DNA from: an uncultured Bacillota bacterium | GTDB lineage: Bacteria > Sysuimicrobiota > Sysuimicrobiia > Sysuimicrobiales > Segetimicrobiaceae | DNA length: 49,695 nucleotides | Assembly: GCA_963804645.1 (NCBI GenBank) | Contig: CAWDRG010000021.1 | Span: 1-49,695 of the forward strand | Reading direction: 5' to 3' | Shown: one piece after another, positions 21,310 to 40,290 of the stretch | Layout: each line of letters opens with the position of its first letter | Numbering within the stretch: position 1 is the first letter of the stretch | The notes under the pieces: model-generated | What the model saw: the letters and a program-made list of their open reading frames with translations, nothing else | The model's database searches: none | Told to the model about the DNA's origin: nothing | Position numbers and translations under genes: made by a program

Positions 21310-22620
21310 ATGAGCGACAATCAATCGCCGGCGCCTCCTGTGCCTGCGGTCCATCCCAAGTTCCGCAAGATCATCGGCGAGCGAAAGCCTGGTTGGCGGC
21401 GCTCGATCTGGATCTTTTGGGCGCTGCTGGGCCCCGGATTTGTCGCTACGCTTGCGAACAACGATGCGGGTGGCGTCATTTCCTACGCCGTGACCGGGGC
21501 GCTCTTTGGGATCGGCCTCTTCATCCCGTTGGTGATTTGCCTTGCCCCCTTGGCATTTACGATTCAAGAGATGAGCATGCGCCTCAGCGCCGTCACGCAA
21601 GAGGGATTCTCCAAACTGGTCCTGCGCCGGTACGGACGATTCTGGGGCTACTATCACATCACGACGCTGGCGCTCGAGAACCTGCTCACCCTCGTGACGG
21701 AGTTCATTGGGATGACGGCGGGGCTCATCCTGTTGGGCCTGCCCCTCTGGCTCAGCGACATCAGCTGTCTCTTGCTGATCGTGACGTGCGTCCTCCTCAC
21801 CGGCTACTGGACGAAAGAGCGAGTCGCCCTGTGCGTGGGAGCGCTCAACGTCATCTTTCTCGTCGTCGCCGCCATGACGCACCCGAGCGCGGCCGCCATC
21901 GGGCACGCCTTCGTGGCGTGGAACGTTCCGGCGGGCCGTCACCCCAGTGTGCTCTGGTACGTGATCGCCACCGTGGGGAACGCCGTCGCGCCGTGGATGA
22001 TCTTCTTTCAAGGGAGCGGGACGATCGATAAAGGGGTGACGTCGCGCGACCTGCGGCTGAGCCGCATTGACACCGCCGTCGGCAGCGTCATCCAGGTCAT
22101 CGTGGCCGCCGGGATCATTGTGTGTGGTGCCGCACTCGTCGGGCACGTGCACGAGCTCAGCCAGTCCGGTCCTGCCCAGATCATCCAGTCGCTCGACCGC
22201 TCGGTGGGGCGGTGGCCCGCCATCCTCTTTGGCATCGGTCTCTTCAACGCCGGCTTTCTCGCCTCGATTACGGTGTCGCTTTCCTCGTCCTGGAGCATCG
22301 CGGAAATGTTTGGGTGGTCGAAGAGCCTGGACGACAAGATCTCGACGGCCCCGGGGTTTTACGCGAGCTATATCGGCAGCCTGGTCCTCGCGGCGCTGGC
22401 GGTGCTGCTCCCCCATCTCCCGCTCAACTTGATTGCCGTCGTCACGCAGGTGATCGGTGGGATCCTCATGACGCCGCTGTTGGTGTTCATGGTGTTGATG
22501 ACGCGCGATCGCGCCTTGATGGGGGAGTACAGCACAGGCCTGTTGGCGAGCCTGTGGAGTTGGGCCATGGTCGGCGTGCTTATTGTGTTGACGCTGGCGA
22601 CGTTCTGGAACACGCTCTAG
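21310..22620 (+). CDS. NRAMP-related (SLC11) divalent cation transporter, non-canonical metal site
   Basis: LLGPGFVATLANNDAGGVISYA (DAGG instead of DPGN) and NAVAPWMIFFQGSG (APW instead of MPH). Confidence 0.7.
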   Translation: MSDNQSPAPPVPAVHPKFRKIIGERKPGWRRSIWIFWALLGPGFVATLANNDAGGVISYAVTGALFGIGLFIPLVICLAPLAFTIQEMSMRLSAVTQEGFSKLVLRRYGRFWGYYHITTLALENLLTLVTEFIGMTAGLILLGLPLWLSDISCLLLIVTCVLLTGYWTKERVALCVGALNVIFLVVAAMTHPSAAAIGHAFVAWNVPAGRHPSVLWYVIATVGNAVAPWMIFFQGSGTIDKGVTSRDLRLSRIDTAVGSVIQVIVAAGIIVCGAALVGHVHELSQSGPAQIIQSLDRSVGRWPAILFGIGLFNAGFLASITVSLSSSWSIAEMFGWSKSLDDKISTAPGFYASYIGSLVLAALAVLLPHLPLNLIAVVTQVIGGILMTPLLVFMVLMTRDRALMGEYSTGLLASLWSWAMVGVLIVLTLATFWNTL

Positions 22621-23947
22621 CAGGCCGCGGAAAAAACGTGTTTATGACGAATCATCGTGCCTGGTTCGAGAGTGATCATGCCACCTGAAGCTCCGCGGAG
22701 CTGCTTGCGCGAGTTCCGCGCGCTCCGTGCGACCTCGCCATCGCACCGAGGGGTGGCATCCTCATGCGAGGGCCTGTTGGAGATTGCGGATCCGCACCAG
22801 GTTGTAGATCGCACACGCAAACACGAACATCCAGTCCACCCGGTCGGTGCTGCGATGGTGCAGCTTGCGCATCAGCCCGATGGTCTTCAGCCAACCAAAG
22901 ATTTCTTCCACCCGCTTGCGGATGCGTTGGCTGATCTCATAGCCGGGGTGCCGGGTGGTCCGCAGATCGACGGCACTGCGCCGCTTGCTGGTGTTTTGGG
23001 CAATGTGCGGTGTGACGTCCAAGTCGCGCAGCGCTTGGACGAATTCCGGCGTGTCGAAGCCTTTGTCCGCGCCGACCGTCACGCGGCGCTCGCCGGCCAC
23101 CTGCTCGAGCAGCTCTTCCGCCGTGTCCCGTTCCGCCGTGCCCGTCGCCGCGGTCGCTTGGGCCCGCACCACCAAGCCATTGCGGTTCTCCATCAGCACA
23201 TGGCCCATATAGTACAGCTTCGCTTCCCGGCCGTGGCCTTTGCGCTGCAAGCGCGCCTCGGGATCCGTCGTCGATTGATGCGTGGCATTGCTGCGGTGTT
23301 GGCCATGAAAGTTGACGGTTGGGTTCCCCGGATCATCCGGCGGCGGCTGGTCGGTCGGGTCCTCGTCCTTGGGACGAAAGCTCTTCAGGCCCGCCCAGGC
23401 TTCAATCAGCGTCCCGTCGACGGTGAAGTGTTCCATCGACAAGAGGTCCCGCTCCCGCGCTTGGGCCAGCACGCGCGTGAAGAAGGCTTGCGCGATATCG
23501 CCATCCAGCAGGCGCTGCCGGTTCTTCGTGAACGTCGTCGGGTCCCAGACCGGCTCGTCCATGTTCAACCCGACGAACCAGCGGAACAGCAAGTTGTAAT
23601 CCAGTTGCTCCATCAACTGCCGCTCACTGCGCACCGTGAAGAGCACCTGCAGCAGCAAGGCCCGCAGCAGTTTCTCCGGCGGGATCGAGGGGCGGCCAAT
23701 CTGCGATAGAGTTTGGCGAACGTGGGCGACAACTCATGCAGCACCGCGTCCACCATGCTCCGGATCACGCGCAACGGATGGTCCTGCGGGACGCGCGCTT
23801 CCGGGGAGAGGTAGCTAAACATGCCTTCCTGCTGCCGATCGTCTCCGCGCATCGTGGCACCTCCGAGGGAGGAGTACGAATGAGGGTGCAACGCGACAGA
23901 GTATCATTCTATATGAACATCCAAATACCTGCTTTTTCATCATCCTG
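22621..23947 (-). mobile_element. IS5-family insertion sequence (1327 bp) flanked by CTAG target duplication
   Basis: CTAG at 22617..22620 and 23948..23951; imperfect terminal IRs beginning CAGG...; left CTAG includes the TAG stop of the upstream NRAMP gene. Confidence 0.65.
22762..23852 (-). pseudogene. IS5-family DDE transposase with a 1-bp deletion frameshift
   Basis: N-terminal MRGDDRQQEGMFSYLSPEARVPQDHPLRVIRSMVDAVL...FAKLY, then frame change tattcg->tatcg at ~23655, then GRPSIPPEKLLRALLLQVLFTVRSERQLMEQL... Confidence 0.7.
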
Positions 23948-23996
23948 CTAGGGCGAGCGGTGATGCGTCCGCGTCCCGGTCGTGGCGCCGCGCGGA

Positions 23997-25586
23997 TCAG
24001 GCGATCGGCAGGTCCTCGGTCGCGCTCCGCGCCCGCCGGAGGAGCAGCACGAGCGGGAGGACGCACAGAAACACCACGCCAATGGTGCCGAAAACGTAGT
24101 CGAACGCGACGACGGCCGCCTGCTGGCTGATGAGGCCCTGCAGCGCCGCGAGCGCCTGCCAGTGTGCGGTCGTCGGGTCGCTGCCGCGCGCGACGAATGC
24201 CTGCTGGTACGTCTGCCACCACTGCCTGAACTGCGGATTGTAGATCGACGCGTACTTCACCAGATTGGCACTGACGGCGGTGATCTTTTGGTTGAGGAGC
24301 GTGATCACGATCGCCGTGCCGAGGCTTCCCCCCAACTGGAACATCAGGTTGAAGAGGCTCGACGCGCTCTGCATCAGCCGTTTCGGGATGGTGGAGAGCG
24401 CCGACGTCGCCATCGGGACGAACATGCACGCGAACCCGACCCCCTGAAGCACGAGCGGTCCGACCAGCTGGACCTCGCTGCTGTTGGTCGTGAAGTGGGC
24501 CATGAGGAAGCCGGAGATGCTCGCGAGGACCAGCCCCAGCGGCAGCAGGACGTAGGGGCCGACCCGATTGTACAGCGCTCCGGCGAGCGGCATCATCAGC
24601 ACCATGACGAGCGACCGCGGCATCAGCGTCAGCCCCGCCTGTGTTGCGGTGTATCCGAGCAGAGTCTGTAGGAACAGCGGCATGAGGATCAGGCCGCCGA
24701 ACAGCGTGCCGCCCAGGACCGCGCCGATGAGCGCTCCAGACGCGAACGAGAGGTTCCGGAAGATGCGCAGGTCGACCGCCGGCGCGCGCTCCCGGAGCTC
24801 CCAGTAGATGAACGCGGCGAGGGCCACGACGAAGAGAATCGCGAGCGAGACGATCAGTGCGCTCTGGAACCATCCGTCGTTCTCGCCCTCCTCCAGCAGG
24901 ATCTGCAGCGACGCGAGGGCGGTGGCCAGGAGCCCGATCCCGATCCCGTCGATGCGCCGAAATCCCTGGGCGCGCATCCAGGGCGGGTCGACGATGAACT
25001 GGGTGCCGAGGAAGAGCGCGATCGCTCCAATCGGCAGGTTCACGAAGAAGATCCACGGCCATGAGAGATTGTCGGTCAGCCACCCGCCGAGCGTGGGGCC
25101 GATCGCCGGTCCGAGCAGGATGACCATCCCGAAGAGGCCCATCGCTTGGCCCTGTTCCTCGGGCGGGAAGGCCTCACGGGTGATCGCCTGGGAGGTCGGC
25201 GCCAGCACCCCGCCGCCGAGCCCCTGAAGGACGCGGAACAGGATCAACTGTCCAAGCGTCCGCGAGATCCCGCACAACATTGACGCGACGGTGAAAATCC
25301 CGATGGCGATCAGATACATCCGCTTCCGGCCCAGGATCGAACTGAGCCACGTCGTGAGGGGCATGACGATGACGAGCGCGATGAGGTACGAGGTGCTGAC
25401 CCACGTGACCTCCTGTGTGGTCACGCCGTAGGTCGCTTGGATGTGGACCAGGGCGACGTTCACGACGCTCGAATCGATCGCGCCCATCAACGCGCCCGCC
25501 ATGACGGACAGGACGACGACCCACTTATTCGGCGCCGTCCATTCGCGGCCCGCCGCTCCGCTGATGACCCCTGCCTGTGCCGACAT
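23997..25586 (-). CDS. MFS transporter, DHA2 (EmrB/QacA) family drug:H+ antiporter
   Basis: 14-TM MFS; LGRKRMYLIAIGIFTVASMLCGISRTLGQLILFRVLQGLGGGVLAPTSQAI motifs. Confidence 0.8.
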   Translation of the reverse strand: MSAQAGVISGAAGREWTAPNKWVVVLSVMAGALMGAIDSSVVNVALVHIQATYGVTTQEVTWVSTSYLIALVIVMPLTTWLSSILGRKRMYLIAIGIFTVASMLCGISRTLGQLILFRVLQGLGGGVLAPTSQAITREAFPPEEQGQAMGLFGMVILLGPAIGPTLGGWLTDNLSWPWIFFVNLPIGAIALFLGTQFIVDPPWMRAQGFRRIDGIGIGLLATALASLQILLEEGENDGWFQSALIVSLAILFVVALAAFIYWELRERAPAVDLRIFRNLSFASGALIGAVLGGTLFGGLILMPLFLQTLLGYTATQAGLTLMPRSLVMVLMMPLAGALYNRVGPYVLLPLGLVLASISGFLMAHFTTNSSEVQLVGPLVLQGVGFACMFVPMATSALSTIPKRLMQSASSLFNLMFQLGGSLGTAIVITLLNQKITAVSANLVKYASIYNPQFRQWWQTYQQAFVARGSDPTTAHWQALAALQGLISQQAAVVAFDYVFGTIGVVFLCVLPLVLLLRRARSATEDLPIA

Positions 25587-25810
25587 CCGTCGATCGCTCT
25601 CCGTCCGCCGCTCGGCCGGCCGGGCCCCGACGTGCGCCCCGCCGCGCCGTGACGTGTGTGCCGCGTCTGCCGCCGATCTCCCGGGCGGCCGTCCCTACGT
25701 CTAACGACGGACGGGGCCGCTCGACTCCCGCGGAGACGACCGGTATGCTCGGAGGGTGGCGCGTCCGCGCGCCCCGCGCAATGACGTGATTCTGGGGGGG
25801 AGGAAGGCCG

Positions 25811-26923
25811 ATGTCAAGGTCGTCGGCGGCGCTGCCGCGCACCGCAGAGGTGATCGCGCGGGGCATCGCTGACGGGCTCCACCTCGGAGTTCAGCTGTAC
25901 GTGTCGGTAGATGGGGTCCCCGCGGCGGACCTGGCGATCGGCGACGCGCGGCCCGGCGTCCCGCTCGCTCCCGACAGCCTCATGCCGTGGATGTCCTCGT
26001 GTAAGCCTGTGGGCGCGGTCGCGGTGGCCCAACTCTGGGAGCGGGGCGGGCTGCAGTTGGACGACCCGGTCTCCCGGATCATCCCTGAGTTCGGTGCGCA
26101 CGGCAAGGCTCTCGTGACGATCCGGCATCTGCTGACCCATACTGCGGGTTTCCGGTTCATCGAGCCCGGGTGGCGGGACGTGTCGTGGGACCAGCTTATC
26201 GCTGAGATCTCATCGGCGCCGCTCGAGCCGGGATGGGTGCCCGGGGAGCGCGCGGGCTACCATCCGTCGTCGTCCTGGTACATCCTGGCCGAGATCGTGC
26301 GGCGCGTGGATGGCCGTCCGTTCGATCGGGTTGTCCGGGAGGAGATCTTCGAACCGCTCGGGCTCCTCGATTCGTGGATCGGGGTGCCCCAGGAGCGGCT
26401 GCGCGCGTACGGGGATCGAGTCAGCGGCTTCTACGATACCCAGGGGGATCTCCCGCGCCCGAACCTGTCCGACGCCGAGGCGCGCGGCCTTCCCTATCGG
26501 CCGGGAGGGAGCGGGCGCGGTCCCGTGCGCGAGCTTGGACGGTTCTATGAGGTGCTGCTGGCGGGGGGGAACCGCGGCGGGGTCCGGATCCTCTCTCCGC
26601 AGACGGTCGAAGCGCTGACCGCGGGGCACCGCATCGGCATGTTCGATGAGACGTTTCGCCATGTGATCGACTGGGGGCTCGGCTTCATCCGCGCCTCCAA
26701 CCAGTACGGCCCCGACACGGTACCGTACGGGTACGGGCCGCACTGCTCGCGCAGGACGTTTGGCCACAGCGGCTACCAGTCCTCGGCGGCGTTCTGCGAT
26801 CCCGAGCGACGCCTCGTCGTCGCATGGGCGGCGAACGGGACGCCGGGGGAGGTGCGCCACCAGGCCCGCGCCGTCGCGCTCAACGCGGCCGTCTACGAGG
26901 ATCTGGGGCTCGTGGCCCGGTAG
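25811..26923 (+). CDS. Serine hydrolase, beta-lactamase/esterase (class C-like) family
   Basis: S-x-x-K motif (MSSCKPVGAVAVAQL), LLTHTAGF; 3' end overlaps convergent encapsulin gene by 31 nt. Confidence 0.7.
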   Translation: MSRSSAALPRTAEVIARGIADGLHLGVQLYVSVDGVPAADLAIGDARPGVPLAPDSLMPWMSSCKPVGAVAVAQLWERGGLQLDDPVSRIIPEFGAHGKALVTIRHLLTHTAGFRFIEPGWRDVSWDQLIAEISSAPLEPGWVPGERAGYHPSSSWYILAEIVRRVDGRPFDRVVREEIFEPLGLLDSWIGVPQERLRAYGDRVSGFYDTQGDLPRPNLSDAEARGLPYRPGGSGRGPVRELGRFYEVLLAGGNRGGVRILSPQTVEALTAGHRIGMFDETFRHVIDWGLGFIRASNQYGPDTVPYGYGPHCSRRTFGHSGYQSSAAFCDPERRLVVAWAANGTPGEVRHQARAVALNAAVYEDLGLVAR

Positions 26924-27804
26924 CGCGTGCGGCGTGTGCTCGGAGCCTTCGCCGAGGCCGGGCGACGTGCCGCCCGACCCGGGCCGCGGGACGCCTCCGT
27001 CTTCCCGGACGCCGCCAGTGCCACCGCCGCCTCGGCGGTCAACATCAGGAACGTGAACGTCTCCTGCAGGTACAGCCGGACCGCGGTCTCCGTATGGGTG
27101 AGGTAGCCGATCGAGACGTCTTGGCCGATGTGGAGGTCGAAGTCGCCGCCGCGGGTGGTGAGCACGAATGCGCCGGTGATGGCCGGGGCCCAGATGATGT
27201 CGCCGTCCAGGAGACGCTGCACGTGCGTCAGGACCGGGTAGCCGTGGTCACTGGTCTCGCTGAGGTGCGTGTAGGCGGCCGCGCTCAGCACGAGGGCGTA
27301 CGGCCCCTCGACGCCGGCGAGCCGCAGCCGCGCCAGGGCCTGGGCGATTGCGCGGGGAGCTTCGCGCGCGTCGTCGGGGAGCGGGACCTCGGGATGGCTG
27401 CTCACCGACCGAACGCCCCCGATTCCCGCCGCGGGGTACCCCTCGAACACGGCACGGTCCTCGGCGAAGGCGATGGCGCGGGCCGCGTCCTTCAGCGGCT
27501 GCCAGTCGGAGTCCTTCGCGCCGCGCTCCACGTCGTCGACGGCCTGGCGGGCCAGTTCGAAGGGGACACGGAGCTCGACGAGCGTCTGCGCCTGGCGCTG
27601 CAGGGCGCCGATGCCCTCCCCGGGCGAGGGGAGGGTCCTCACATGACCCGTGCCGACCGCGGAGAAGGCGACACCGTGCGGGCCATGCACGTCGACGACG
27701 CGGCGCGCGGCGAGATGGCGCTTCAGCGTGCGCGACGCCTCCTGCTCGATCTGCGCCCACGCGGCCTCCGAGACCGGAGCCAGGTCGCGGTGGAGATTGT
27801 TCAT
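26893..27804 (-). CDS. Family 1 encapsulin shell protein (Linocin_M18, HK97 fold) with ~38-aa basic C-terminal extension
   Basis: MNNLHRDLAPVSEAAWAQIEQEASRTLKRHLAARRVVDVHGPHG...LYLQETFTFLMLTAEAAVAL, then GKTEASRGPGRAARRPASAKAPSTRRTRYRATSPRSS; ATG overlaps DyP stop (ATGA). Confidence 0.85.
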   Translation of the reverse strand: MNNLHRDLAPVSEAAWAQIEQEASRTLKRHLAARRVVDVHGPHGVAFSAVGTGHVRTLPSPGEGIGALQRQAQTLVELRVPFELARQAVDDVERGAKDSDWQPLKDAARAIAFAEDRAVFEGYPAAGIGGVRSVSSHPEVPLPDDAREAPRAIAQALARLRLAGVEGPYALVLSAAAYTHLSETSDHGYPVLTHVQRLLDGDIIWAPAITGAFVLTTRGGDFDLHIGQDVSIGYLTHTETAVRLYLQETFTFLMLTAEAAVALAASGKTEASRGPGRAARRPASAKAPSTRRTRYRATSPRSS

Positions 27805-28857
27805 GCCGAGGATCCTCCTTTGAGCGAGCCGATGCCAAGCGAGCCATCGCCCGTCGGCGCGGGCGCCTGCGGCGGGGCGTGCGGGGGGCGTCGGGGTCTC
27901 GGAGTCGCTGTCCCCGGCCGTCTCGAGGAACGTGGCGGTCGGTACGAAGAACAGCGTGCCGGTGACGGCGCGGCTGAAGTCCAGCAGCCGATCGTAGTTG
28001 CCCGGCGGCCGGCCCACGAACATGTTCATCAACATCTGTTCGATCCGGCGGGGCGAGCGGGCGTACCCGATGAAATAGGTGCCGAACTCGCCTTTCCCCG
28101 CGTCGCCGAACGGCATGTTGTCGCGGACGATCTCGAGCTGCGTGCCGTCCTCGGTGATGGTCGTCAGCGCGTTGTGCGCGAACGTCGGCTTGACGGCGTC
28201 GTCCAGCTCGATGTCGGACAGCTTCGTCCGGCCGATGATGCGTTCTTGCGTCTCGGTCGGCAGCGCGTTCCACCCACGAAGGTCGTGGAGATATTTTTGG
28301 GTGATGACGTAACTGCTCCCGGCGAACCCGGCGTCCTCCTCGCCGATGATGGTGGCCTCGAGGGCGCCCTGGTCCACCGGGTTCTCCGTGCCGTCCACGA
28401 AGCCGATGAGATCGCGGTCGTCAAAGTACTTGAATCCGTGCGTTTCGTCCACGGGCGACACGGCGCCGCCGAGCCGCGTCATGATCTGCGTGGCCAACTC
28501 GAAACACAGGTCCATGCGCGTGGCACGGATGTGGAAGAGGACATCGCCGGGCGTGGCCACCGCATGGTGGGGCGTCCCCCGGATCTCGCGGAACGGATGG
28601 AGTTCGGCCGGCCGCGGCGTCCCAAAGAGCCGGTCCCAGGCATCGGACCCGAACCCCACCACGCACGAGAGGCGGCCTTCGAGGTCACGGAATCCCACGG
28701 CCCGCACCAGCGCTGCGAGATCGCGGCAGCACGCCAGGACCGCCGCACGGGACTCGGCGCCGGCGTGGATCGTCACGACCAAGAAGATCGCCGCGCTGGT
28801 CAGCGGGGATGCGACCGGCTGCTGGACGGCGGAGACCCTGTTCGAGTCTGCGGCCAT
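27801..28857 (-). CDS. Dye-decolorizing (DyP-type) peroxidase, encapsulin cargo; as sequenced it is frame-fused to the encapsulin gene
   Basis: GFVDGTENP motif; N-terminus AAIFLVVTIHAGAESRA; C-terminal targeting peptide ...APAPTGDGSLGIGSLKGGSSA* present but in the +1 frame after the G6 run 27883..27888; removing one G restores it and places the TGA stop over the encapsulin ATG. Confidence 0.8.
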
Positions 28858-29090
28858 CAGGCGGGTGTGGCGTCGGGAGGAGTGTGCATCCGTGACGTCC
28901 CTCCATTCGAGGGGTACAACGGGGACTTCCGTGCTGGCGCCGTCATTCCTGCGAGCCGATTCTCCACGCGCGGACTGCGGGCTCGGCGTCGACGCTGCGA
29001 GGTCGGGTGGCGCGGGTGAGGGGAGCTGAGGACCCAGGTCGAGATGATCGAGGAGCGGAAGGGCCGACGTCTGACGGCGGGACGTACGGC

Positions 29091-29126
29091 GGGGGCCGGC
29101 CGGTATGGGAACCGGATCCGGCCCCC
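29091..29126 (-). terminator. GC-rich hairpin (9-bp stem GGGGGCCGG/CCGGCCCCC) just downstream of the Met-rich protein gene
   Basis: Perfect inverted repeat 14 nt after the stop of 29142..29456; no U-tract. Confidence 0.35.
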
Positions 29127-29141
29127 GACTCGCACGTGGTG

Positions 29142-29456
29142 TTACTTGTTCTTGGACCCGTTCATCATGGACTGCGCCAGATCGTTGTCCGCCTGCCACA
29201 GCATCTTCATCATCGCGGCCATCTCGTCCAGTTCCTTCTGCATCGCCTTTTCCGTGGGCGTCATCGTCATCCCGTGTGCCGAGGTCATATCCTGCTGCAT
29301 CTGCGTCATCTGCATTTCCATCTGCTTCAGGATTGCCTGCGCCTCGGCCGGACTCGGCCCCTGCTGCTGCGCGCGCACGGCGGACAGATTCCCGCCCGCC
29401 ATAGCCACGACGAATCCCATGAGCACGCCGATCGCGATCCACTGAAGCTTCTGCAT
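29142..29456 (-). CDS. Small secreted Met-rich protein (candidate periplasmic metal-binding)
   Basis: Sec signal peptide MQKLQWIAIGVLMGFVVAMAGGNLSAVRA; mature part rich in MxM/MxxM motifs (MEMQMTQMQQDM, MTMTPTEKAM, MAAMMKM). Confidence 0.55.
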   Translation of the reverse strand: MQKLQWIAIGVLMGFVVAMAGGNLSAVRAQQQGPSPAEAQAILKQMEMQMTQMQQDMTSAHGMTMTPTEKAMQKELDEMAAMMKMLWQADNDLAQSMMNGSKNK

Positions 29457-29938
29457 TGTCTCGCCTCCTCGATTGATGGGTGCCTATCTTCGCGATCCGA
29501 CACACCGCGATCTCGCCGTTCGACCGACTCTCACCTCTCTTTTCGGTCCGCAGGGCCCCGGGGATTGGCAGCTCGCGCGATTCCCTGTGATGTAACGGTA
29601 CGCGAACGATATGACAATTCGATAATGCGCAGCGGATTCGAGCGTGCCAGTGTCATCACACGAGCATCGTGCTGTCATCAGGTTGTTATAAATCACTGCA
29701 GGTCGGGCGGAGGACCAACGCCCCGCGTACGGGGGTCCCGCGTGGCGGGACGGACAGTCGAATCGAGGCGCGGTACGCGCTCTGGGCACTGACCGGTCAG
29801 CGCGGCCTCGGACGGATCACGTTCATCTCATGGGGTGGATCTCATCACCGGGAGGCGGGCGTTCATCGGGATCTCGGGGCGCGACGCTGGGGCCGCGCCG
29901 GGTGGGACCGCGCGAGATGGCGGCGCCGGGATCGGCGC

Positions 29939-31372
<1,434 letters not shown>

Positions 31373-31485
31373 GGCCCCATCTCCTTCGGTCAGCGGGTGC
31401 GGGCCGCCCGCGGGGGCGCCGTGTTTCCTGTTCGAGTCGGACCGCCGGGGCCCCTGGTGCCGCGGCAGGGGGGCTCGCCGTCCGG

Positions 31486-32787
31486 GTGGAACCCGCCGTG
31501 CGTGGACGTGACACGCTGTCGGGGATGGTTGGAAGGCGTGCGCCGTGCGGCCGCGGCGGCGGGCGCGTGAGCGGTGAGGCCGAGGGGCCGCTTGACGGGC
31601 TGCGGGTCCTCGATGCGTCGCGGGTGCTCGCCGGGCCGTTCTGCACGATGCTGCTCGCCGATCTCGGCGCCGACGTTACTAAGATCGAGCGCCCGGGCGC
31701 GGGTGATGAATCGCGTGGATGGGGACCGCCGTTCGTCGAGTCCGCAGACGGCTCGCTCCGGGAATCGACCTACTATCTGTCGGTCAACCGCAGCAAGCGG
31801 AGCCTCACCCTGGACCTGATGACCGAGGCCGGGCGCGAGATCTTCCACCGGCTTGCTGCCGCGTCGGACGTGGTCGTGGAGAACTTCCGCCCGGGGACGC
31901 AGGCGGGCCTCGGCGCCGACTACGACACCCTCGCCGCGCTGAACCCGCGGCTGGTGTACTGCTCGATCTCGGGGTTCGGCCCGGTGGGGCCCGACCGGCT
32001 GCTTCCCGGGTACGATCTCCTGATGCAGGGCTTCACCGGGCTCATGTCGATCACGGGGGAGGCCGGGAAGGAGCCGGTGCGGGCGGGCGTCGCCGTGATC
32101 GATCTCGCCACTGGAATCTCAGGAGTGAGCGCGATCCTCGCCGCGCTCCTCGTGCGGGACCGCACCGGGCGCGGCCAGCGGATCGACCTGTCGCTCCTCG
32201 CCACCGGGTTGTCGCTCATGAGCTATGCCGCGCAGGCCTACTTTCTCACCGGCCGCCAGCCCAAGCTGCCGTCGCCGTCGGGCCACCCGAACCTGGCGCC
32301 GTACCAGGCCTTCCGCGATCGGGACGGGCGGTGGTTCCTCGTCGCGGTCGGCAACGACGACCAATGGCGGCGGTGCTGCGCCGCGCTGGAGATCGGGCCC
32401 GACGATGAGGCTCGGTTTCGCAGCAACGCCGACCGGGTGACCCGCCGCGCCGAGCTGATCCCGATGCTCGAGCGGCTGTTCGCGACGGGGTCCGCCTCCG
32501 AGTGGGTGGCGCGGTTCGAGCGTGCGGGCGTGCCCGCCGGGCCGGTGCACTCGTTGGCCGAGGTCTTCGCCCACCCGCAGGTCGAGGCATCGGGGCTCGT
32601 CGAGACGCTCGAGCATCCGGTGCTGGGGACGCTTAAGACGGTCGGGCCGGCGCTGCGGATGTCGGAGACGCCTCCGAGCCTGCGGGCGGCCCCGCCGACG
32701 CTGGGACAGCACACCGACGAGATCCTGCGCGAGCTCGGGATCGCCGACGCGGAGATCGCGCGGCTGCGCCGGGACCGGGTGGTGTAG
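31486..32787 (+). CDS. Family III CoA-transferase (CaiB/BaiF family)
   Basis: [37 protein letters not shown]...; true start may be downstream of 31486. Confidence 0.75.
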
Positions 32788-32790
32788 CCC

Positions 32791-33360
32791 GTGGAGGCGC
32801 GGCGGCTCGCGACCACGGCCATGCTCGCCGCCCTCGCCTTCATCGTCATGGCCGCGATTCAGATCCCGGTGTTGCCGCAGGCGCCGTACCTGACCTACGA
32901 CCCCAGCGACGCGGTGGCGCTGGTCGCCGGCGTCCTCTACGGGCCGGGGACCGGGGTGACCGTGGTGGCGATCAAGGATCTCTTGTACCTGCTGCTGCGC
33001 GCGCACGGGCCGTTCGGTCCGGCGGCGGATTTTCTCGCCGCCGCCACCTTCGTCTGGGTCACGTCATGGACGTTTGCGCGGCTGCACGGGTCGTTTGCGC
33101 GCCGGCTCGCCTGGGCCGCGGCGTCCGGCACGGCCGCCCGGGTGCTCATCATGATCCCGGCGAACTTCATGCTGCTGTGGCTCCAGTTCGGCACCGCACC
33201 CGCGGGGGTCGCACGGCTGGTGCTGCCGGTGATCGTGCCCTTCAACGCCGTGAAGGCGGCCGCGAACGCGCTGCTCGCGCTGTGCATCGCGGAGCCGGTC
33301 GCGCGCGCCGCCGCGCCGCGCGGCCGCGCACCGTGGAGCGGACCGCCTACATCCCGGTGA
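32791..33360 (+). CDS. Small integral membrane protein, ECF-transporter S-component-like
   Basis: 5-6 predicted TM helices, 189 aa, start 4 nt after the CoA-transferase stop. Confidence 0.4.
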   Translation: MEARRLATTAMLAALAFIVMAAIQIPVLPQAPYLTYDPSDAVALVAGVLYGPGTGVTVVAIKDLLYLLLRAHGPFGPAADFLAAATFVWVTSWTFARLHGSFARRLAWAAASGTAARVLIMIPANFMLLWLQFGTAPAGVARLVLPVIVPFNAVKAAANALLALCIAEPVARAAAPRGRAPWSGPPTSR

Positions 33361-33763
33361 CGCGCTCGGGCTCGATGTAGATGCTCACCCGGTTCTCGGG
33401 ACGGTCCCCTCCGGGGTAGCCGTACGGCTTCCCCGTGTAGCGCTGGGAGAGCCGGTTGATGTCGCGCGCGCCGTTCTCCGCGTCGAACACCGCGGCTTTC
33501 CCGTGGATCTGCACGTAGTGGTAGGGGTTGTCTTTGTCGACGATCGCGAGGACGACGTCCGGGTTCTGCTGCATGTTGCGGAGCTTCGTCCGCCCCTTCG
33601 ACGTGTTGACGAGGACGCGGCCGTCGGACAGCACGAACCAGACCGGCGTGGCCTGGATCCGGTTGGCGCGCGAGCGCGTCACCAAGACGGCGAAGTTCGG
33701 CTTCTCAAGAAACTCACGGACCGGCGCGGAGAGTGCGGTGGCCACGCCTACATCACCTCCCAA
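33347..33763 (-). CDS. Pyridoxamine 5'-phosphate oxidase family / F420-dependent-type small oxidoreductase
   Basis: EFLEKPNFAVLVTRSRANRIQATPVWFVLSDGRVLVNTSKGRTKLRNMQQNPDVVLAIVD split-barrel PPOX pattern. Confidence 0.6.
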   Translation of the reverse strand: MGGDVGVATALSAPVREFLEKPNFAVLVTRSRANRIQATPVWFVLSDGRVLVNTSKGRTKLRNMQQNPDVVLAIVDKDNPYHYVQIHGKAAVFDAENGARDINRLSQRYTGKPYGYPGGDRPENRVSIYIEPERVTGM

Positions 33764-34047
33764 GTGGATCGATCGACGACCCGACGCGGGCCAGCGACCG
33801 CGCGCCCGGTTCGCTGTTCTTGAATGGGGGAGGCCGGTCCTGCCGGCGCCGCCACCCGCCGCACGGCCCTTTACCGGAATTTCATTGGATCGTTACGACT
33901 TTTCAACCTGACGTGGGCGGTATCGGCTTGACACGCACGTTAGGTATTCCTACAATCAGTGCGGCCATTCAATTCCCGATAAAGTTGGCCTGCACGGCGC
34001 AGTGCCCGCCGTGCAGTTGCATGTCAGCCCATCGGCAGGGAGGAATC

Positions 34048-34524
34048 GTGTCGGAGCGCATGGGAACCCTGTATCAGATCGGTGAAGTGTGTCAACTCAC
34101 CGGGCTCACACCCCGGGCGCTGCATTACTACGACGAGCTTGGCGTGATGGTGCCATCGGAACGGTTGGCGGGGGGCCACCGACTGTACACCGATTCCGAC
34201 ATCCAGCGCATCCAGCAGATCAAAAGCTTCAAGAGTCTTCTCGGCCTCTCGCTGAGCGAAATCAAGCGCATCCTTGACGCCGACGAGGCGCGGACGCGGT
34301 TTCTCGCGGCCGCTCAAGAGGCGGCCGACCCCACGGGGCGAACCCGGGCCGTCGAAAGCGCGTTAAAAGTGACAGAAGATCAGCTGCGGTCTGTGCGGAG
34401 CAAGGTGCAGCAACTGGGACAGCTGCAGCGGCAGCTCGAACGCCACGTGCGCGAGCTGCGGCGGCTGCTCCACGATGCGGACCGCAGCCACGGAGCCGAG
34501 CGCATCGTAGGGGGTCGAGCGTGA
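34048..34524 (+). CDS. MerR-family transcriptional regulator
   Basis: YQIGEVCQLTGLTPRALHYYDELGVMVPSERLAGGHRLYTDSDIQRIQQIKSFKSL HTH; GGGAGG RBS; stop overlaps MFP GTG start (GTGA). Confidence 0.75.
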   Translation: MSERMGTLYQIGEVCQLTGLTPRALHYYDELGVMVPSERLAGGHRLYTDSDIQRIQQIKSFKSLLGLSLSEIKRILDADEARTRFLAAAQEAADPTGRTRAVESALKVTEDQLRSVRSKVQQLGQLQRQLERHVRELRRLLHDADRSHGAERIVGGRA

Positions 34525-35904
34525 AGAGTCGATCGTGGGGATGGATCGCGCTGGTCTGCATCGCACTCGTCGCGGGGCTGTTGGTCGGACGATCGGGATC
34601 GACGAAGGTCGCGAGTCAGGCCGCGGCGGCTCCCACGACCTCGCGGGCGCGGAACCGCGTCGCCACGACGGTCGGCGTCGGGCACCCGGAAGTTAAGAAT
34701 CTGCCGGTGATCCTGCAGCTGACCGCGAGCATCGCGTCGCTGCACGAGGCGGTGGTCCTGCCGCAGAGCTCGGGATACCTGCAGGTGGTGACGGTGCGCG
34801 TCGGCGATCCGGTCACGGCGGGTCAGGTGGTCGCCGTGGTGAACCACGACCAGCTCCAGGCGCAGGTGGTGCAGGCGCAGGCGGCGCTGGCGGCCGCGAC
34901 GACCGCGGTCCAGACGTCGCGGGCGTCCGTCGCGAACGCCCAGGCGCAGCTGGCGAGTGCGATCGCGGGAGAGCGCAGTGCCGACGCGAACCTCGTGAAC
35001 GCCCACGCGGGGCTCACCAAGGCGCAGGCGACCCTCGCAGACGCCCAGGCGACGTACGACCGCACGGCGACGCTGGTTCAGCAGGGGGCCGCCGCACAGC
35101 AGGCGCTCGACGACGCGAAGGCGACGGTGATCTCGGATCAAGCGGCCGTCGATCAAGCGCGGGCGCAGATCAGCGTGGCGGAAGCCCAGGTGGTGCAGTC
35201 GCGCGCGCAGGTGACCGCGCAGCAGCAGCAGATCCTGGCCGCGCAGTCGCAGGTGCACACGCAGTCGGCGATGGCGAATTCGGCGGCCGCCGCGCTGCAG
35301 AACCAGCAGATCGGACTCCAGAACGCCACGATCGTCGCGCCGTTTACGGGGATCGTGGTCGCGCGCACCCTGGACCCCGGGGCGTACGTGACGCCCGGGA
35401 CGTCGACGCCCATCGTCACCATCGCCGACCTGAGTCAGCTGTACGTCCTGGTGGACGTGAGCGAAGCGCAGCTGCCGATGGTCCACCGGGGCGACCCGGT
35501 GCAGATTTTGGTCGACAGCCTACCCCGGCCGGACGTTTACCGGGCGCGTCAGCCGGATGTCGGGCGGCGTCGATCCGCAGACGCGCACCGTGCAGGTGGA
35601 GATCGACATTCCGAATGTGGGGCATCCGCTGCGGCCGGGGATGTACGCCACGGCGCTGATCAACGCGGGCGACCAGCGCTCGCTCGTGGTGCCGCTGACC
35701 GCGATCGTCACGATCGGCAGCGAGCACTACGTGTGGGCGGTCGTCGACGGGAAGACGACCCAGCGGCAGGTGACCATCGGCCGCGAGACCGGTTCGTACG
35801 TGGCCGTCACCGGCGGGGTCACCGAGGCCGATACCGTCGTGTTCCGCGGATCCGACCTCGTGCGGGAAGGGCAGGCCGTGCAAACCCAGCAGGTCAGTCT
35901 CTAG
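34521..35904 (+). pseudogene. HlyD-family membrane fusion protein (RND/efflux adaptor), single 1-bp insertion frameshift
   Basis: N-terminal TM, coiled-coil, IVAPFTGIVVARTLDPGAYV...; frame shifts at CCCC run 35524..35527 (CCC would give ...DSLPGRTFTGRVSRMSGGVDPQTRTVQVEIDIPN continuing into ORF 35557..35904). Confidence 0.7.
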
Positions 35905-35913
35905 GAGCGCCCG

Positions 35914-38900
35914 ATGTTTCTGACCCGCGCCGCGATCCGGAATCCCGTCCTGGTGCTGATGGTGTGCATCGCGGTCACCGTGTTGAGTCAGATCGGGCTG
36001 CAGCGGCTGCCGCGCGACCTGTTCCCGCAGATCACGATCCCGGTCATCCAAGTCCAGACGACCTACAGCGGCGCGAGCACGGAGACGATGGAACGCACCG
36101 TGACGTACCCGCTGGAGCAGGCGGTCACGCGGGTCGCCGGCGTCACGCAGATTCTGTCGACGACGCGCCAGGGCAGCAGCAGCATCCAGGTGTGGTTCGA
36201 CTGGGGCTCGAACCTCGATGTCGGCGAGATCGAGGTCATCCAGAACGTACAGCGGGCGCTGCGGAGCCTGCCGACCGGGGTGTCGCAGCCGTTCGTCCTC
36301 AAGTTCGACATCTCCAACATCCCGGTCGTCCAGGTGGTGGTCGGCGGCGGCGGGCTCAACGCCCTCCAGCTGTACGACCTCGCGTACAATACGCTCGAGC
36401 CGCAGCTCGAGCGTATCTCGGGCGTCTCGACCGCGTTCGTGAACGGCGGGCTCCTGCGGCAGATCAACGTCAACGTCGATCCGCACAAGCTGGCGGCCAC
36501 CGGGCTGTCGCTGCAGAACGTGATCACCGCGATCAGCCAGGCGAACGCGCTGCTCCCGGCCGGCAACCTGCAGAACACCCAACTCAACTATCAGCTGAAC
36601 GTGCCGACGCTGCTGCAGTCGATGCCCCAGATTCAGCACGTCATCGTCGCGAACGACAACGGCATCCCGGTGCACGTCGGCGACGTCGCCCAGGTGGTGG
36701 ACGGCGCGGCGACGCAGAGCCAGATCGTCCACGTGAACGGCAAGCCCGGCGTCCTCCTGTTCGTGGCGCGGCAGCCCGACGCGAACACGATCCAGGTCGT
36801 GGACGCCGTCCGCGCGGCGCTGCCGAGTCTGACCGGGATCCCAAAGGGCGTCACGCTGACGCTGTCGTTTGACCAGTCGCAGTACATCCGGGCGGCGATC
36901 TCGACGCTCGCGCACGAAGCAATGATCGGCGCGTTCCTGACGTTCCTCGTGGTGCTGGTGTTCCTGCGCAGCCTGTGGAGCGTGTTCATCGTCAGCATCG
37001 GCATTCCGCTGTCGGTGTCCTCGGCGCTGCTGCTGCTCTACTTCTCGGGCCAGACGCTCAACATCTTCACGCTCGGCGGCCTCACCCTCGCGATCGGCCG
37101 CCTGGTGGACGACGCGATCGTCGTCCGGGAGAACATCACGCGGCACCTCTCCGTGCCCGGCACGCCGGTGCTGCAGGCCGTGATCGACGCGACGGCCGAG
37201 GTCGGCCTGCCGGTGTTCGCGTCGACGTCCACGACGATCGCGGTGTTCTTCCCGGTCGTGTTCCTGAGCGGGATCGCGCAGCGCCTGTTCATGCCGATGG
37301 CCCTGACGGTGATCTTCGCGCTGCTCGCCTCCTACGTCGTCTCGATGACGATCGACCCGCTGTTGAGCCTCCGCGTGCTGCGCGCGTCGACCGGGGAGGG
37401 GATCCAGGGGGAGGGCCTGATCCCGCGGGTCGCCCGGTGGAGCGAACGCATGATGGACCGGCTCGACGAGCACTACCAGCACGTGCTGCACTGGACGCTG
37501 AGCCGCGGAGGCCGGGTGCTGGGCGCGATCGCGGTCATCTTCGTGATCTCGGTCTTCGCCGCGCGCGGCATCGGCACGGAGTTCTTCCCGCAGACCGACG
37601 AGAGCCAGTTCTCGATCCAGGTGCAGGCGCCGCAGGGCACGGCGGTGGTGGCGGCGTCCCAGATCGTGGAGCAGATCTCGGACATCACGCAGCAGGTGAT
37701 CCCCGCGAAGTACCGCACCGCCGTGTACACGAACACCGGGATCCCCTCGAACGGCGGCGGGTTCGGCTCCAACGCGGGCCAGAACTACGGCACCGTCAGC
37801 GTGCGGCTAGTCTCTCCCTCGCAGCGCCCGAAGTCGTCCGACGCCTACGCGAACGACGTGCGCCGGGCGATCGCCGGAAAGTTCCCGGGCGTCCTGACGT
37901 TCATCCAGACGGGCGGGCTGGAGCACGCGGTCGTGAACTTCGGATCCCAGGCGGCGATCGACATCCAGCTGCTCGGATACGATCAGACCGCCGGCGTGCA
38001 GTTCGCCCAGCAGGTGGCGTCGATGGTGGCGTCAATTCCCGGTACCGCCGATGTGCAGATTACGCCGCGCGGGCAGACGCCGGAGTTCAACGTGCAGGTC
38101 GACAACGAACGGGCGTCCCAGTACGGATTGAGTCCCACCGCCGTCGCGAACGCGGTCAATACTGCGATTGCCGGCAACGTCTCGACCGCGAGCCAGTTCA
38201 TCGATCCCGTCACCGGGAACGAGTACAACATGGTCGTCCAGCTGCAGCAGCAGTATCGGACGCACCCCGAGGATCTCGGCGGGGTGCCGCTCAACGTGCT
38301 GCCGGATCCGGCCGCGGTGAACTCCGCGCCGCAGTCGGCCGTGCCGATCCTGCTGCGGGACGTCGCCAATATCACCCTCGGCTCCACGCCGCTCCAGATC
38401 AACCGCAAGAACGAGCAGCGCGTGATCGACGTGACGGCGAACGTCGTGGACCGCCCGCTCGGCGCGGTGTCGGACGATATCGCCGCGGAGCTCAACCAGA
38501 CGCCGTTCCCCGTGGGCTTCACGTATCACATGGCCGGGCAGACCGAAGCCCAGTCGGGCGCGTTCTCGAGCCTCGGCTTCGCCTTGATCATGGCGCTGAT
38601 GCTGGTGTACATGATCATGGCGTCGCAGTTCCAGTCGCTCGTGGACCCGTTCGTCATCATGTTCACGGTGCCGCTGGGCTTCATCGGCGTGATCTGGATG
38701 CTCTTGCTGACGCACACGACGCTGTCGATCATCTCCTTCATGGGCGTGATCATGATGATCGGCATCGTCGTCAGCAACGGCATCCTGCTCGTGGACTACG
38801 CGAACAAGCAGCAGAAGGTGGGGATGTCCCCCCATGACGCGATCATCCGGGCCGGCCGGATCCGGCTCCGGCCGATTCTGATGACCGCGATCGCGACGGT

Positions 38901-39081
38901 GTGCGGCATGATTCCCATGGCGCTCGGGATCGGCGAGGGCGCGGAGACGAACATGCCGCTCGCCCGGGCCGTGATCGGCGGCCTCTCGGTGTCGACGCTG
39001 CTGACCCTGCTCGTCATCCCGTTGATGTATCTGATGTTCGAGCAGCGGTTTCCGCGCCGACGTCAGCTCGGGCAGGACTGA
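35914..39081 (+). CDS. RND-family efflux transporter permease (AcrB/HAE-like), intact 1055 aa
   Basis: 12-TM RND architecture with two large periplasmic loops; length and motifs typical. Confidence 0.85.
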   Translation: MFLTRAAIRNPVLVLMVCIAVTVLSQIGLQRLPRDLFPQITIPVIQVQTTYSGASTETMERTVTYPLEQAVTRVAGVTQILSTTRQGSSSIQVWFDWGSNLDVGEIEVIQNVQRALRSLPTGVSQPFVLKFDISNIPVVQVVVGGGGLNALQLYDLAYNTLEPQLERISGVSTAFVNGGLLRQINVNVDPHKLAATGLSLQNVITAISQANALLPAGNLQNTQLNYQLNVPTLLQSMPQIQHVIVANDNGIPVHVGDVAQVVDGAATQSQIVHVNGKPGVLLFVARQPDANTIQVVDAVRAALPSLTGIPKGVTLTLSFDQSQYIRAAISTLAHEAMIGAFLTFLVVLVFLRSLWSVFIVSIGIPLSVSSALLLLYFSGQTLNIFTLGGLTLAIGRLVDDAIVVRENITRHLSVPGTPVLQAVIDATAEVGLPVFASTSTTIAVFFPVVFLSGIAQRLFMPMALTVIFALLASYVVSMTIDPLLSLRVLRASTGEGIQGEGLIPRVARWSERMMDRLDEHYQHVLHWTLSRGGRVLGAIAVIFVISVFAARGIGTEFFPQTDESQFSIQVQAPQGTAVVAASQIVEQISDITQQVIPAKYRTAVYTNTGIPSNGGGFGSNAGQNYGTVSVRLVSPSQRPKSSDAYANDVRRAIAGKFPGVLTFIQTGGLEHAVVNFGSQAAIDIQLLGYDQTAGVQFAQQVASMVASIPGTADVQITPRGQTPEFNVQVDNERASQYGLSPTAVANAVNTAIAGNVSTASQFIDPVTGNEYNMVVQLQQQYRTHPEDLGGVPLNVLPDPAAVNSAPQSAVPILLRDVANITLGSTPLQINRKNEQRVIDVTANVVDRPLGAVSDDIAAELNQTPFPVGFTYHMAGQTEAQSGAFSSLGFALIMALMLVYMIMASQFQSLVDPFVIMFTVPLGFIGVIWMLLLTHTTLSIISFMGVIMMIGIVVSNGILLVDYANKQQKVGMSPHDAIIRAGRIRLRPILMTAIATVCGMIPMALGIGEGAETNMPLARAVIGGLSVSTLLTLLVIPLMYLMFEQRFPRRRQLGQD

Positions 39082-39083
39082 TC

Positions 39084-39893
39084 GTGCCGGCCCCTGAGGT
39101 GGCCGGCGCCGGGGAGCTGAAGATCGAGGGGCTCAGTGTCTCACTGACACGGCCCTCGGGCGACCTCCCGGTCCTCAACGACGTCTCGCTCGACGTGCCG
39201 GCCGGCAAGACCGCGGCGCTGGTCGGGGCGAGCGGCGCCGGGAAGTCCATGACGGCGTACGCCGTGCTCCGGCTGTTTCCGGTCGACGCGAAAATCACCG
39301 CCGGGCGCATCCTGCTCGACGGCGTCGACCTGGTGCCGATGTCCGAACGGGCGCTCTCGGCCGTACGCGGCCGGCGCGTCGCGATGATCTTCCAGGAACC
39401 CTCCTCGGCGCTCGATCCCGTGATGTCGATCGGGGATCAGGTGATGGAGGGCATCGTGGCCCACCTCGGCCGCAGGGGCGCGCGCGAGCGCGCCACCGAG
39501 GCGCTGCAGCGGGTGGGCCTCGACCCGTCGCTGCTGCGGCGGTACCCGCACGAGCTGTCCGGCGGGCAGCGCCAGCGGGTGCTGATCGCCGCGGCAATCG
39601 CGCCGGGGCCGACGCTCTTGATCGCCGACGAGCCGACCGCGTCGCTCGACGTGACCGTCCAGGCGCAGATCCTGGATCTGCTCGACCGGCTCCAGGACGA
39701 GCTCGGGATGTCGCTTCTGCTGATCACGCACGACCTCGGCATCGTGGCGCAGATGGCCGACCTGGTGCACGTGATGCGCGGCGGGCACATCGTGGAGGCG
39801 GCGGAGACGCGGCAGCTGTTTGCCGCGCCGCAGCACCCGTACACGAAGGCGATCGTGGAGGGCGCCCGGCGGATGGGATTCTGGCCCACCTGA
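39084..39893 (+). CDS. ABC transporter ATP-binding protein (DppD/OppD-like), no cognate permease nearby
   Basis: Walker A GASGAGKS, signature LSGGQRQRV, Walker B LLIADEPT, H-loop ITHDL; GTG start 3 nt after RND stop. Confidence 0.75.
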   Translation: MPAPEVAGAGELKIEGLSVSLTRPSGDLPVLNDVSLDVPAGKTAALVGASGAGKSMTAYAVLRLFPVDAKITAGRILLDGVDLVPMSERALSAVRGRRVAMIFQEPSSALDPVMSIGDQVMEGIVAHLGRRGARERATEALQRVGLDPSLLRRYPHELSGGQRQRVLIAAAIAPGPTLLIADEPTASLDVTVQAQILDLLDRLQDELGMSLLLITHDLGIVAQMADLVHVMRGGHIVEAAETRQLFAAPQHPYTKAIVEGARRMGFWPT

Positions 39894-40022
39894 TCCGCCA
39901 ACCGGGTGCCGACACCTCTCGGGTGAGAGGATGGGGCTGCCGTGGTGGGGAAGCCGAGCTGCGGCGAATACGCGAGAGGACGGCAACGATCAGGTGGCAC
40001 ACGTCTCAGCGGAAGGTGCGCC

Positions 40023-40232
40023 ATGGCGGATGTAAAGATTACCCCTACCGATCACGGGCCGTACCAGGTGGTGGGTGCGGTCCGGTTGGTTGACGCAGAC
40101 GGGAATGCTTGGGAGACGAAAGAAACCGTGTGGCTGTGCCGCTGCGGTCACTCCGCGCGCAAACCGTTTTGCGACGGATCCCACAAGACGAACAGTTTCT
40201 CCGCGTCCGACCGGGCGGGGAAGAAGGCCTGA
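40023..40232 (+). CDS. CDGSH-type iron-sulfur domain protein (69 aa)
   Basis: WLCRCGHSARKPFCDGSHK motif. Confidence 0.75.
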   Translation: MADVKITPTDHGPYQVVGAVRLVDADGNAWETKETVWLCRCGHSARKPFCDGSHKTNSFSASDRAGKKA

Positions 40233-40290
40233 CGGCACGTCCACGCTGCGCGCGTGACGTGTGACGGCGGCGTCGCCGTGTGGATCCGAG

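Follow-up and report, generated by a model that had tools for sequence, protein, structure and literature searches.

DyP-type peroxidases are the commonest cargo of family-1 encapsulins, and a T=1 shell natively holds one or two DyP hexamers (PMC8346489). Cargo can also be joined covalently to the shell. Natural family-1 fusions with an N-terminal cargo domain are known for Flp in archaea and for a dihaem cytochrome c in anammox bacteria, a topology that internalizes the cargo, and a DyP fusion class is not described in the census of 2,383 family-1 systems (PMC8346489). The natural Flp and cytochrome c fusions are conserved across genomes, have T=3 shells, and carry no vestigial loading peptide.

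The locus considered here lies on a contig of 49,695 bp, the whole of which forms the window. Its closest known counterparts are the classical family-1 DyP systems, among them Mycobacterium Cfp29/DyP, Klebsiella pneumoniae, Brevibacterium linens Linocin M18/DyP, and Rhodococcus jostii DypB. As in these systems, the cargo gene is directly upstream of the shell gene, the stop and start codons overlap, and a GSLGIGSLKG-type peptide follows a flexible linker; the shell matches those of Cfp29 and K. pneumoniae and the cargo matches 8u4z. The underlying system is an already-known, canonical family-1 encapsulin operon. It departs from the classical systems in that the loading peptide is out of frame, and it does so in this contig only. 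As deposited, the sequence puts both domains in one polypeptide with the cargo on the N-terminal side, as in the Flp fusions of Pyrococcus and Sulfolobus and the cytochrome c fusion of anammox bacteria. Unlike those fusions, however, this one is absent from every independent assembly of its lineage, and the loading peptide, Shine–Dalgarno sequence, and stop/start signals lie out of frame.

The DyP–encapsulin locus as deposited

On the minus strand, a DyP peroxidase begins at the ATG at 28857 and continues in one frame into a family-1 encapsulin that ends at 26893. The translated ORF is 654 aa long, and Pfam places Dyp_perox_N (PF04261, E 1.2e-33) at residues 12–143, Dyp_perox_C (PF20628, E 3.7e-56) at residues 146–308, and a full-length Linocin_M18 domain (E 1.5e-98) at residues 352–602, which agrees with the single continuous frame described in a first-pass annotation of the sequence. 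The GXXDG motif of DyP-type peroxidases (FVDGTENP) is present in the translation as IGFVDGTENP. The best PDB matches of the cargo are encapsulin-associated DyPs, the closest being 8u4z, "Family 1 encapsulin-associated DyP peroxidase" (E 3.7e-139). Neither the 654-aa fusion nor the 303-aa shell had a match in exact-sequence look-ups; independent copies were obtained by similarity search and cluster listing. In protein clustering, the 654-aa product drew 303-aa and 269-aa shells into a DyP cluster.

The end of the DyP body (...GTLFFVPTATFLE) is followed by a Pro/Ala/Thr-rich flexible linker (27855..27921, minus strand), which contains the frame break and has equivalents of variable sequence in relatives. 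Beyond it lies the cargo-loading peptide TGDGSLGIGSLKGGSSA (27804..27854, minus strand), which the DNA encodes intact, though shifted by +1 from the frame of the DyP body. The +1 frame reads ...APAPTGDGSLGIGSLKGGSSA*, and the stop codon of the peptide, TGA (27803..27801), and the start codon of the shell, ATG (27804..27802), overlap as ATGA. Reading the frames on the minus strand therefore confirmed what the first-pass annotation had said of an intact +1-frame peptide and an ATGA overlap; the same annotation had named the absence of GSLGIGSLKG from every frame as grounds for abandoning a frameshift, and the peptide was found. Its displacement by a single base also held up: the peptide is out of frame with the DyP body in the deposited contig and returns to frame once base 27880 is removed.

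The peptide is widely shared. The same ending (...TGDGSLGIGSLKGGSPA) occurs in the independent proteins P0121, P0124, and P0126, and of 80 related loci retrieved, 75 have an upstream DyP gene that finishes with a GSLxIGSLKG peptide, so that the targeting peptide is not a chance match. Peptide and DyP body share one frame in 70 of those 75 loci, and in almost all of the 80 the shell gene immediately follows the 3′ end of a DyP gene. The relatives are mostly Acidobacteriota and Xanthobacteraceae MAGs, and a scan of species-representative genomes gave no near-identical genome, with a best shell identity of 78%. The host lineage is described as an uncultured soil or peat bacterium.

The shell gene (26893..27804, minus strand) is co-oriented with the cargo gene that adjoins it and encodes 303 aa, with Linocin_M18 (PF04454) covered from position 1 to 253 of 253. 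Residues 1–264 match the Cfp29 and K. pneumoniae family-1 shells in the PDB with E values of about 1e-112. The remainder is an Arg-rich C-terminal tail of roughly 39 aa, which distinguishes this shell from the solved ones. Two independent 303-aa shells with the same tail, P0123 and P0128, show 4 residue differences from it, whereas the 269-aa variants P0122 and P0127 of some strains are without the tail. Nine nucleotides before the shell ATG, within the K-G-G codons of the targeting peptide, is an AGGAGG sequence (27814..27819, minus strand), a putative ribosome-binding site of the shell gene. Its columns are unchanged across all six aligned assemblies.

The extra base and other indels in the contig

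Within the lineage, the site is covered by five independent metagenome assemblies (L088–L092, from JGI samples 3300069644, 3300009698, 3300009824, 3300009683, and 3300030494). Four are 98–99% identical to the window at the nucleotide level and one is 92% identical. The extra base is missing from all five, in which a 351-aa DyP with its peptide in frame precedes a separate 303-aa shell gene; the fusion architecture occurs in none of them. The same DyP-upstream-of-shell layout is seen in L089–L092, and the canonical cargo/shell operon that the first-pass annotation had proposed beneath the fusion is what these five assemblies carry.

Alignment of the six assemblies, together with a repair test, places the lesion at 27880..27881 (minus strand), 2–3 nt from a run of six Gs, and all five covering assemblies disagree with the window at this position in the indel catalogue. 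The plus strand reads cgTGc, and the coding strand reads CCCCCC-G-CA-CG where relatives have GCCG, GGCG, or GACA. The extra base falls on the middle nucleotide of a codon for which strains have three alleles (Ala, Gly, or Asp, with C, G, and A alleles all occurring), and the contig reads CA exactly at this strain-variable nucleotide. Deleting base 27880 yields a 351-aa DyP (27801..28857, minus strand, with its stop at the TGA described above) that has 3 mismatches in 351 residues to the independent 351-aa P0121 and a linker identical to that of P0121.

The extra base is not the only irregularity in the contig. A 1-nt insertion at 35519, unique to the window, splits an HlyD-type membrane-fusion gene so that Pfam HlyD_D23 positions 20–170 and 176–214 fall in different frames. 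None of L082, L083, and L084 has the insertion, and in the first two the gene reads as an uninterrupted 460-aa ORF; by alignment, the break is a C-to-CC change five bases upstream of a CCCC run. A transposase with a length of 363 aa in L089 is cut short here by a 1-nt deletion at 23706, likewise unique to the window. The last ∼810 bp encode an acyl-CoA dehydrogenase with 12–13 frameshifts plus codon gaps, the segments between frameshifts being ∼78% identical to intact homologues, a pattern that points to consensus error and not gene decay. Because the window is the whole contig, this cluster of errors sits at the contig end. A metagenome scan with an over-conserved acyl-CoA dehydrogenase pattern returned 120 unrelated contigs, none of the same lineage and the best at 78.8% nucleotide identity, so these end-of-contig errors are mapped against homologues and not against the same strain. 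Fragmented ORFs at 46.8–48.4 kb had no Pfam matches.

A similar pattern is found among relatives. Linker frameshifts occur in 5 of 41 "MFD...bin" MAGs, which have Flye-style contig names, compared with 0 of 34 others (Fisher p = 0.043), and in the frameshifted MFD loci the conserved DyP body is itself interrupted by additional 1-nt indels. Judging by their contig naming, the MFD ".bin" MAGs are Nanopore-based.

Because the extra base is absent from five independent assemblies and the contig has many other indels, it very probably arose as an error in the consensus or assembly of a canonical two-gene operon, and the 654-aa fusion ORF would then be spurious. The organism would make DyP as a separate 351-aa protein with a C-terminal GSLGIGSLKG-type loading peptide, and the DyP stop codon and the start codon of a T=1-type shell gene would overlap as ATGA, with the shell gene served by its own ribosome-binding site inside the peptide codons. 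By homology to solved DyP–encapsulin systems, DyP is expected to oligomerize and then be captured through the peptide in a shell that may self-assemble into an icosahedral compartment and encapsulate this cargo. The fusion ORF would arise from one spurious base near a G6 run of normal length, probably introduced by long-read data, with a mixed-strain population as a possible contributor, in an indel-prone contig.

Three observations stand against an error. The extra base is outside a homopolymer and so is not of the kind most typical of long reads. Mid-contig genes are mostly intact, and the ∼18 kb open to cross-checking contain no more than about 3 gene-breaking indels. Finally, the comparison assemblies with 98–99% identity do not represent the same genome, which would allow for a private, real mutation.

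Alternative readings of the frame change

The best-surviving alternative, which we nevertheless consider improbable, is that this strain recently acquired the extra base as a genuine insertion of its own. DyP would then lose its loading peptide, and read-through would give a 654-aa DyP–linker–encapsulin, while free shell would still be translated from the internal AGGAGG and ATG, both of which are intact. Shells would be empty or would hold a few covalently tethered DyP subunits, and the system would be damaged or partly pseudogenized, not an evolved design. The base does stand in the deposited contig, and it lies outside any homopolymer in a linker codon that is hypervariable among strains, so that the site may be mutable. 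The N terminus of a family-1 shell faces the lumen, so the topology would permit an N-terminal DyP fusion of the kind seen with Flp (PMC8346489). Weighing against a real insertion are the five same-lineage assemblies, none of which has the base, and the 15 or more further frame-breaking indels that the same contig has in conserved genes, which give error a high prior. In addition, we consider it implausible that sixty DyP domains of ∼38 kDa could be accommodated inside a T=1 shell. That the strain actually makes the covalent protein alongside free shell, as a spontaneous natural tethered-cargo DyP encapsulin, is a shade less probable again; if true, it would concern an architecture so far described only for Flp and cytochrome c cargos.

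A second alternative places the frame change in the G6 run itself, which would have gained a G through sequencing error or slipped-strand phase variation, with five Gs as the functional state. The run is present at 27883..27888 as the first-pass annotation had located it, GGGGGG on the plus strand and C6 on the coding strand, where it encodes Pro-Pro. G/C runs of at least six are common in the contig (n = 20, or one in every 2.5 kb or so). Sequencing errors and phase variation both classically arise at homopolymers, this one is at most 3 nt from the lesion, and removing one of its Gs restores the frame. The +1 frame is, however, open through the entire linker, so stop codons alone do not locate the shift at the run. 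The tract is six long in the window and in L089–L092, the four closest in-frame assemblies; in the fifth, L088, it is interrupted (CCCGCC) within a segment of the same length, and a five-G allele was seen in none of the five. Repair by deleting a G from the run also gives a plausible 351-aa DyP, but one with His326, a residue found in no relative, whereas deleting base 27880 matches the P0121 linker exactly. The run is a bystander of normal length. The proposal that five Gs make the canonical locus thus fails against its closest relatives. Slipped-strand variation is unsupported given six Gs in those relatives and an extra base outside the run, and phase variation at the run is effectively refuted. 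Of the three readings offered in the first-pass annotation, sequencing error is the best supported, although the homopolymer to which it was assigned is not the lesion. Overall, we give a change in the G6 run very little chance of being correct.

Equally remote is a functional origin of the frame, either as an evolved DyP–shell fusion or as a programmed +1 ribosomal frameshift yielding both a peptide-bearing DyP and a fusion. Natural N-terminal cargo–shell fusions provide a precedent, and in two more relatives, L013 and L052, a single frame also joins DyP body and shell; these two are, however, MAGs with additional indels in the DyP body. An evolved fusion, the third reading of the first-pass annotation, is effectively refuted: DyP–shell fusion is not conserved even within the lineage, where all five assemblies have two genes, and the junction retains a separate loading peptide and stop/start signals, whose absence would mark a natural fusion. 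The persistence out of frame of an untouched peptide, ATGA overlap, and internal Shine–Dalgarno sequence suggests a very recent or artificial change. Programmed frameshifting is rejected because the requirement for it is not conserved, with body and peptide in one frame in the great majority of peptide-bearing relatives as well as throughout the same-lineage assemblies.

Implications for encapsulin surveys

The contig resembles the frameshift artifacts of long-read or low-coverage MAGs in having several single-base indels in conserved genes, densest at the contig end. It differs from typical long-read artifacts in that the DyP and HlyD insertions are outside long homopolymers, and the homopolymer closest to a frameshift is not necessarily the culprit.

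The biological weight of the finding is small, as the operon is of the commonest and best-characterized encapsulin kind. The caution it carries is that one consensus error in a short, weakly constrained cargo linker can produce a convincing "cargo–shell fusion" ORF, and the same fusion or frameshift artifact recurs in several public long-read MAGs. Apparent fusions in genome-mining surveys of encapsulins therefore need to be checked against independent assemblies or reads.

The DyP–encapsulin junction and its frame

In the window, a whole contig of 49,695 bp, the locus reads as a single stop-free ORF of 654 aa on the minus strand; it starts with an ATG at 28857, and the last base of its stop codon is at 26893. 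Pfam places Dyp_perox_N at residues 12–143, Dyp_perox_C at residues 146–308, and the encapsulin domain Linocin_M18, matched over its full length, at residues 352–602 (E 1.5e-98). The encapsulin ATG lies at 27804..27802 (minus strand), and directly upstream of it the +1 frame encodes ...APAPTGDGSLGIGSLKGGSSA and a TGA that overlaps the ATG as ATGA. The first-pass annotation had described this fusion ORF, the +1-frame peptide, the ATGA overlap and a plus-strand GGGGGG at 27883..27888, and all of these particulars are correct in the sequence. Because no stop interrupts the +1 frame anywhere in the linker, stop codons cannot place the frame change; the contig holds 20 G/C runs of at least six. Between the fumarase and DyP genes lies a 104-aa minus-strand ORF (29142..29456) without a Pfam match, Met/Gln-rich and probably with a hydrophobic segment at its N terminus. 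Gene calls for this ORF are identical in three other assemblies of the lineage (L082, L083, and L090), which makes it a conserved operon neighbor in the lineage.

Assemblies of the same lineage were located by exact look-ups of intact neighbor genes. NCBI GCA_035297025.1 (L082) and five JGI metagenome contigs carry an identical fumarase, and the beta-lactamase-fold gene has an identical copy in one Logan contig. A similarity search matched a repaired DyP to P0001, a protein of 351 aa with 96% identity. The 90% cluster of P0001 includes P0125, the window's own 654-aa product, four 351-aa JGI DyPs (P0001 among them) ending in ...TGDGSLGIGSLKGGSP plus Ala or Ser, and separate shells of 303 aa (P0123 and P0128) and 269 aa (P0122 and P0127); DyPs and shells are joined in it through the probably artefactual 654-aa fusion. 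The complete normal layout is present in L089 (JGI 3300009698), with a 351-aa DyP at 382–1437, a 303-aa shell at 1434–2345, and, past the shell, the same beta-lactamase-fold, MFS, and transposase genes as in the window. The same junction is found in L088, L090, L091, and L092.

Alignment of the junction DNA from the window and these five assemblies locates the lesion. The coding-strand C6 that corresponds to the G6 run is present and in frame in the four close assemblies, and L088 has CCCGCC at this position with its length unchanged. The extra base sits immediately 3' of the run (CCCCCC G CA CG CCCC), where the relatives read G-CCG (L090 and L091), G-GCG (L089 and L092), or G-ACA (L088). The affected nucleotide is a second codon position that specifies Ala, Gly, or Asp depending on the strain, and the window has both C and A there. 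Deletion of plus-strand base 27880 restores a 351-aa DyP whose linker, ...TPTPPAAPPQAPAPTGDGSL..., is identical to that of P0121, an independent 351-aa DyP; over the full length the two differ at 3 of 351 residues. Removal of one G from the run instead creates His326, which is found in no relative. Judged from the aligned sequences, the G6 run is thus incidental to the lesion, and the first-pass attribution of the frameshift to it does not hold. Slipped-strand variation at the run is likewise not supported, as the frame change maps beside it.

Junctions in related loci

Use of the shell protein as a query against species-representative genomes yielded 80 loci, for the most part from Acidobacteriota or Xanthobacteraceae MAGs, with a best shell identity of only 78%. 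In 75 of the 80 loci scanned, the gene preceding the shell terminates in a GSLxIGSLK peptide, which shares its frame with the conserved DyP-body end (GxLFFxP...FLE) in 70 of these 75. Stop and start overlap by 8 nt in most relatives (His-Glu-stop over ATGAAT); the ATGA overlap of the window occurs in a minority. A window-like linker frameshift lies upstream of the shell ATG (at about 4001) in five relatives (L004, L013, L052, L061, and L079), two of which, L013 and L052, resemble the window in that the DyP frame continues into the shell. Such frameshifts occur in 5/41 'MFD...bin' MAGs versus 0/34 other assemblies (one-sided Fisher p=0.043), and several of the five loci also have single-base indels in the conserved DyP body compared with their nearest intact relatives. 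These loci represent a pseudo-fusion artefact that recurs.

Indels elsewhere in the contig and origin of the extra base

Indels were cataloged between the window and L081–L092 over ~18.4 kb (22617..41048), where identity is 97.7–99.9% (91.6% for L088). Most are intergenic and common to only some assemblies, indicating strain polymorphism. At four sites, the window differs from every covering assembly: the DyP linker (27880/81, 5/5 assemblies), 35519 (3/3), and intergenic positions 33901 and 33970 (3/3 at each). The insertion at 35519 (C to CC in AG-C-CTA), missing from L082, L083, and L084, breaks an HlyD-type membrane-fusion gene (34545..35895, plus strand), such that HlyD_D23 positions 20–170 fall in one frame and 176–214 in another; L082 and L083 carry this gene as one unbroken ORF of 460 aa. 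The gene belongs to a MerR-regulated RND efflux operon. A DDE transposase (DUF772 + DDE_Tnp_1; 22762..23851, minus strand) has its N terminus truncated by a 1-nt deletion at 23706, a site covered by one independent assembly, and its longest frame is 323 codons versus 363 aa in L089.

The acyl-CoA dehydrogenase gene (glutaryl-CoA-like; 48426..49695, plus strand) shows no damage in its first ~370 nt, but its last ~810 bp (from ~48888) contain 12–13 frameshifts and several codon gaps relative to intact homologues, with ~78% identity between the breaks. An indel every ~60 bp with the amino acid sequence kept, at a contig end, argues for consensus error and not decay, and the 3' end looks unpolished and of low coverage. 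Upstream of this gene, at 46825..48405 (plus strand), short fragmented ORFs with a coding-like codon signal and no Pfam match may be further frame damage or small unknown genes. At the 5' end, a perfect 1,915-bp repeat with an IS110-family transposase (1..1915 and 2973..4887, offset 2,972) and a perfect tandem duplication of ~1.5 kb (4879..6383 and 6377..7881, offset 1,498) may represent genuine IS copies or an artefact of long-read assembly.

Given the other consensus-type errors in the contig, the DyP insertion is most likely another such error. Merging of reads from coexisting strains that differ in their allele here could have introduced the extra base. That it is instead a private real mutation of this strain is improbable. 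A genuine DyP–shell fusion was rejected: the independent assemblies of the lineage lack it, and the complete peptide, the stop/start overlap, and the Shine-Dalgarno sequence all persist out of frame.

Predicted working of the system

Among family-1 cargos, DyP ranks first (1,505/2,383 systems), and the natural fusions described in this family involve Flp in archaea and dihaem cytochrome c in anammox bacteria, with no DyP fusion class in the survey of 2,383 systems (PMC8346489). Residues 1–264 of the shell align (E ~1e-112) with T=1 family-1 shells of known structure, those of Mycobacterium (Cfp29) and K. pneumoniae, and the DyP matches 8u4z, a 'Family 1 encapsulin-associated DyP peroxidase' (E 3.7e-139). 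Systems of this kind take DyP oligomers into the shell lumen by means of the C-terminal peptide (PMC8346489), and by homology the window's system would work in the same way. A predicted Shine-Dalgarno sequence for the shell gene, AGGAGG (27814..27819, minus strand), precedes the ATG by 9 nt. It falls within the peptide's Lys-Gly-Gly codons and does not vary among the six aligned assemblies, which would place the peptide's KGG under dual constraint. With this site of its own, the shell could be made even from a frameshifted template. The encapsulin ends in an Arg-rich tail of ~39 aa (26893..27012, minus strand) that extends past the region matched by solved shells and shares 31 nt with the convergent beta-lactamase-fold gene (25811..26923). 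This tail is strain-variable, being present in the 303-aa P0123 and P0128; the 269-aa P0122 and P0127 end in ...ASGKT.

Overall, the locus is a canonical, already-known system with a probable assembly artefact in its cargo linker. Pseudo-fusion errors of this type recur in public long-read MAGs, where a single-base error in a cargo linker generates spurious 'fusion encapsulins' and contaminated protein clusters.
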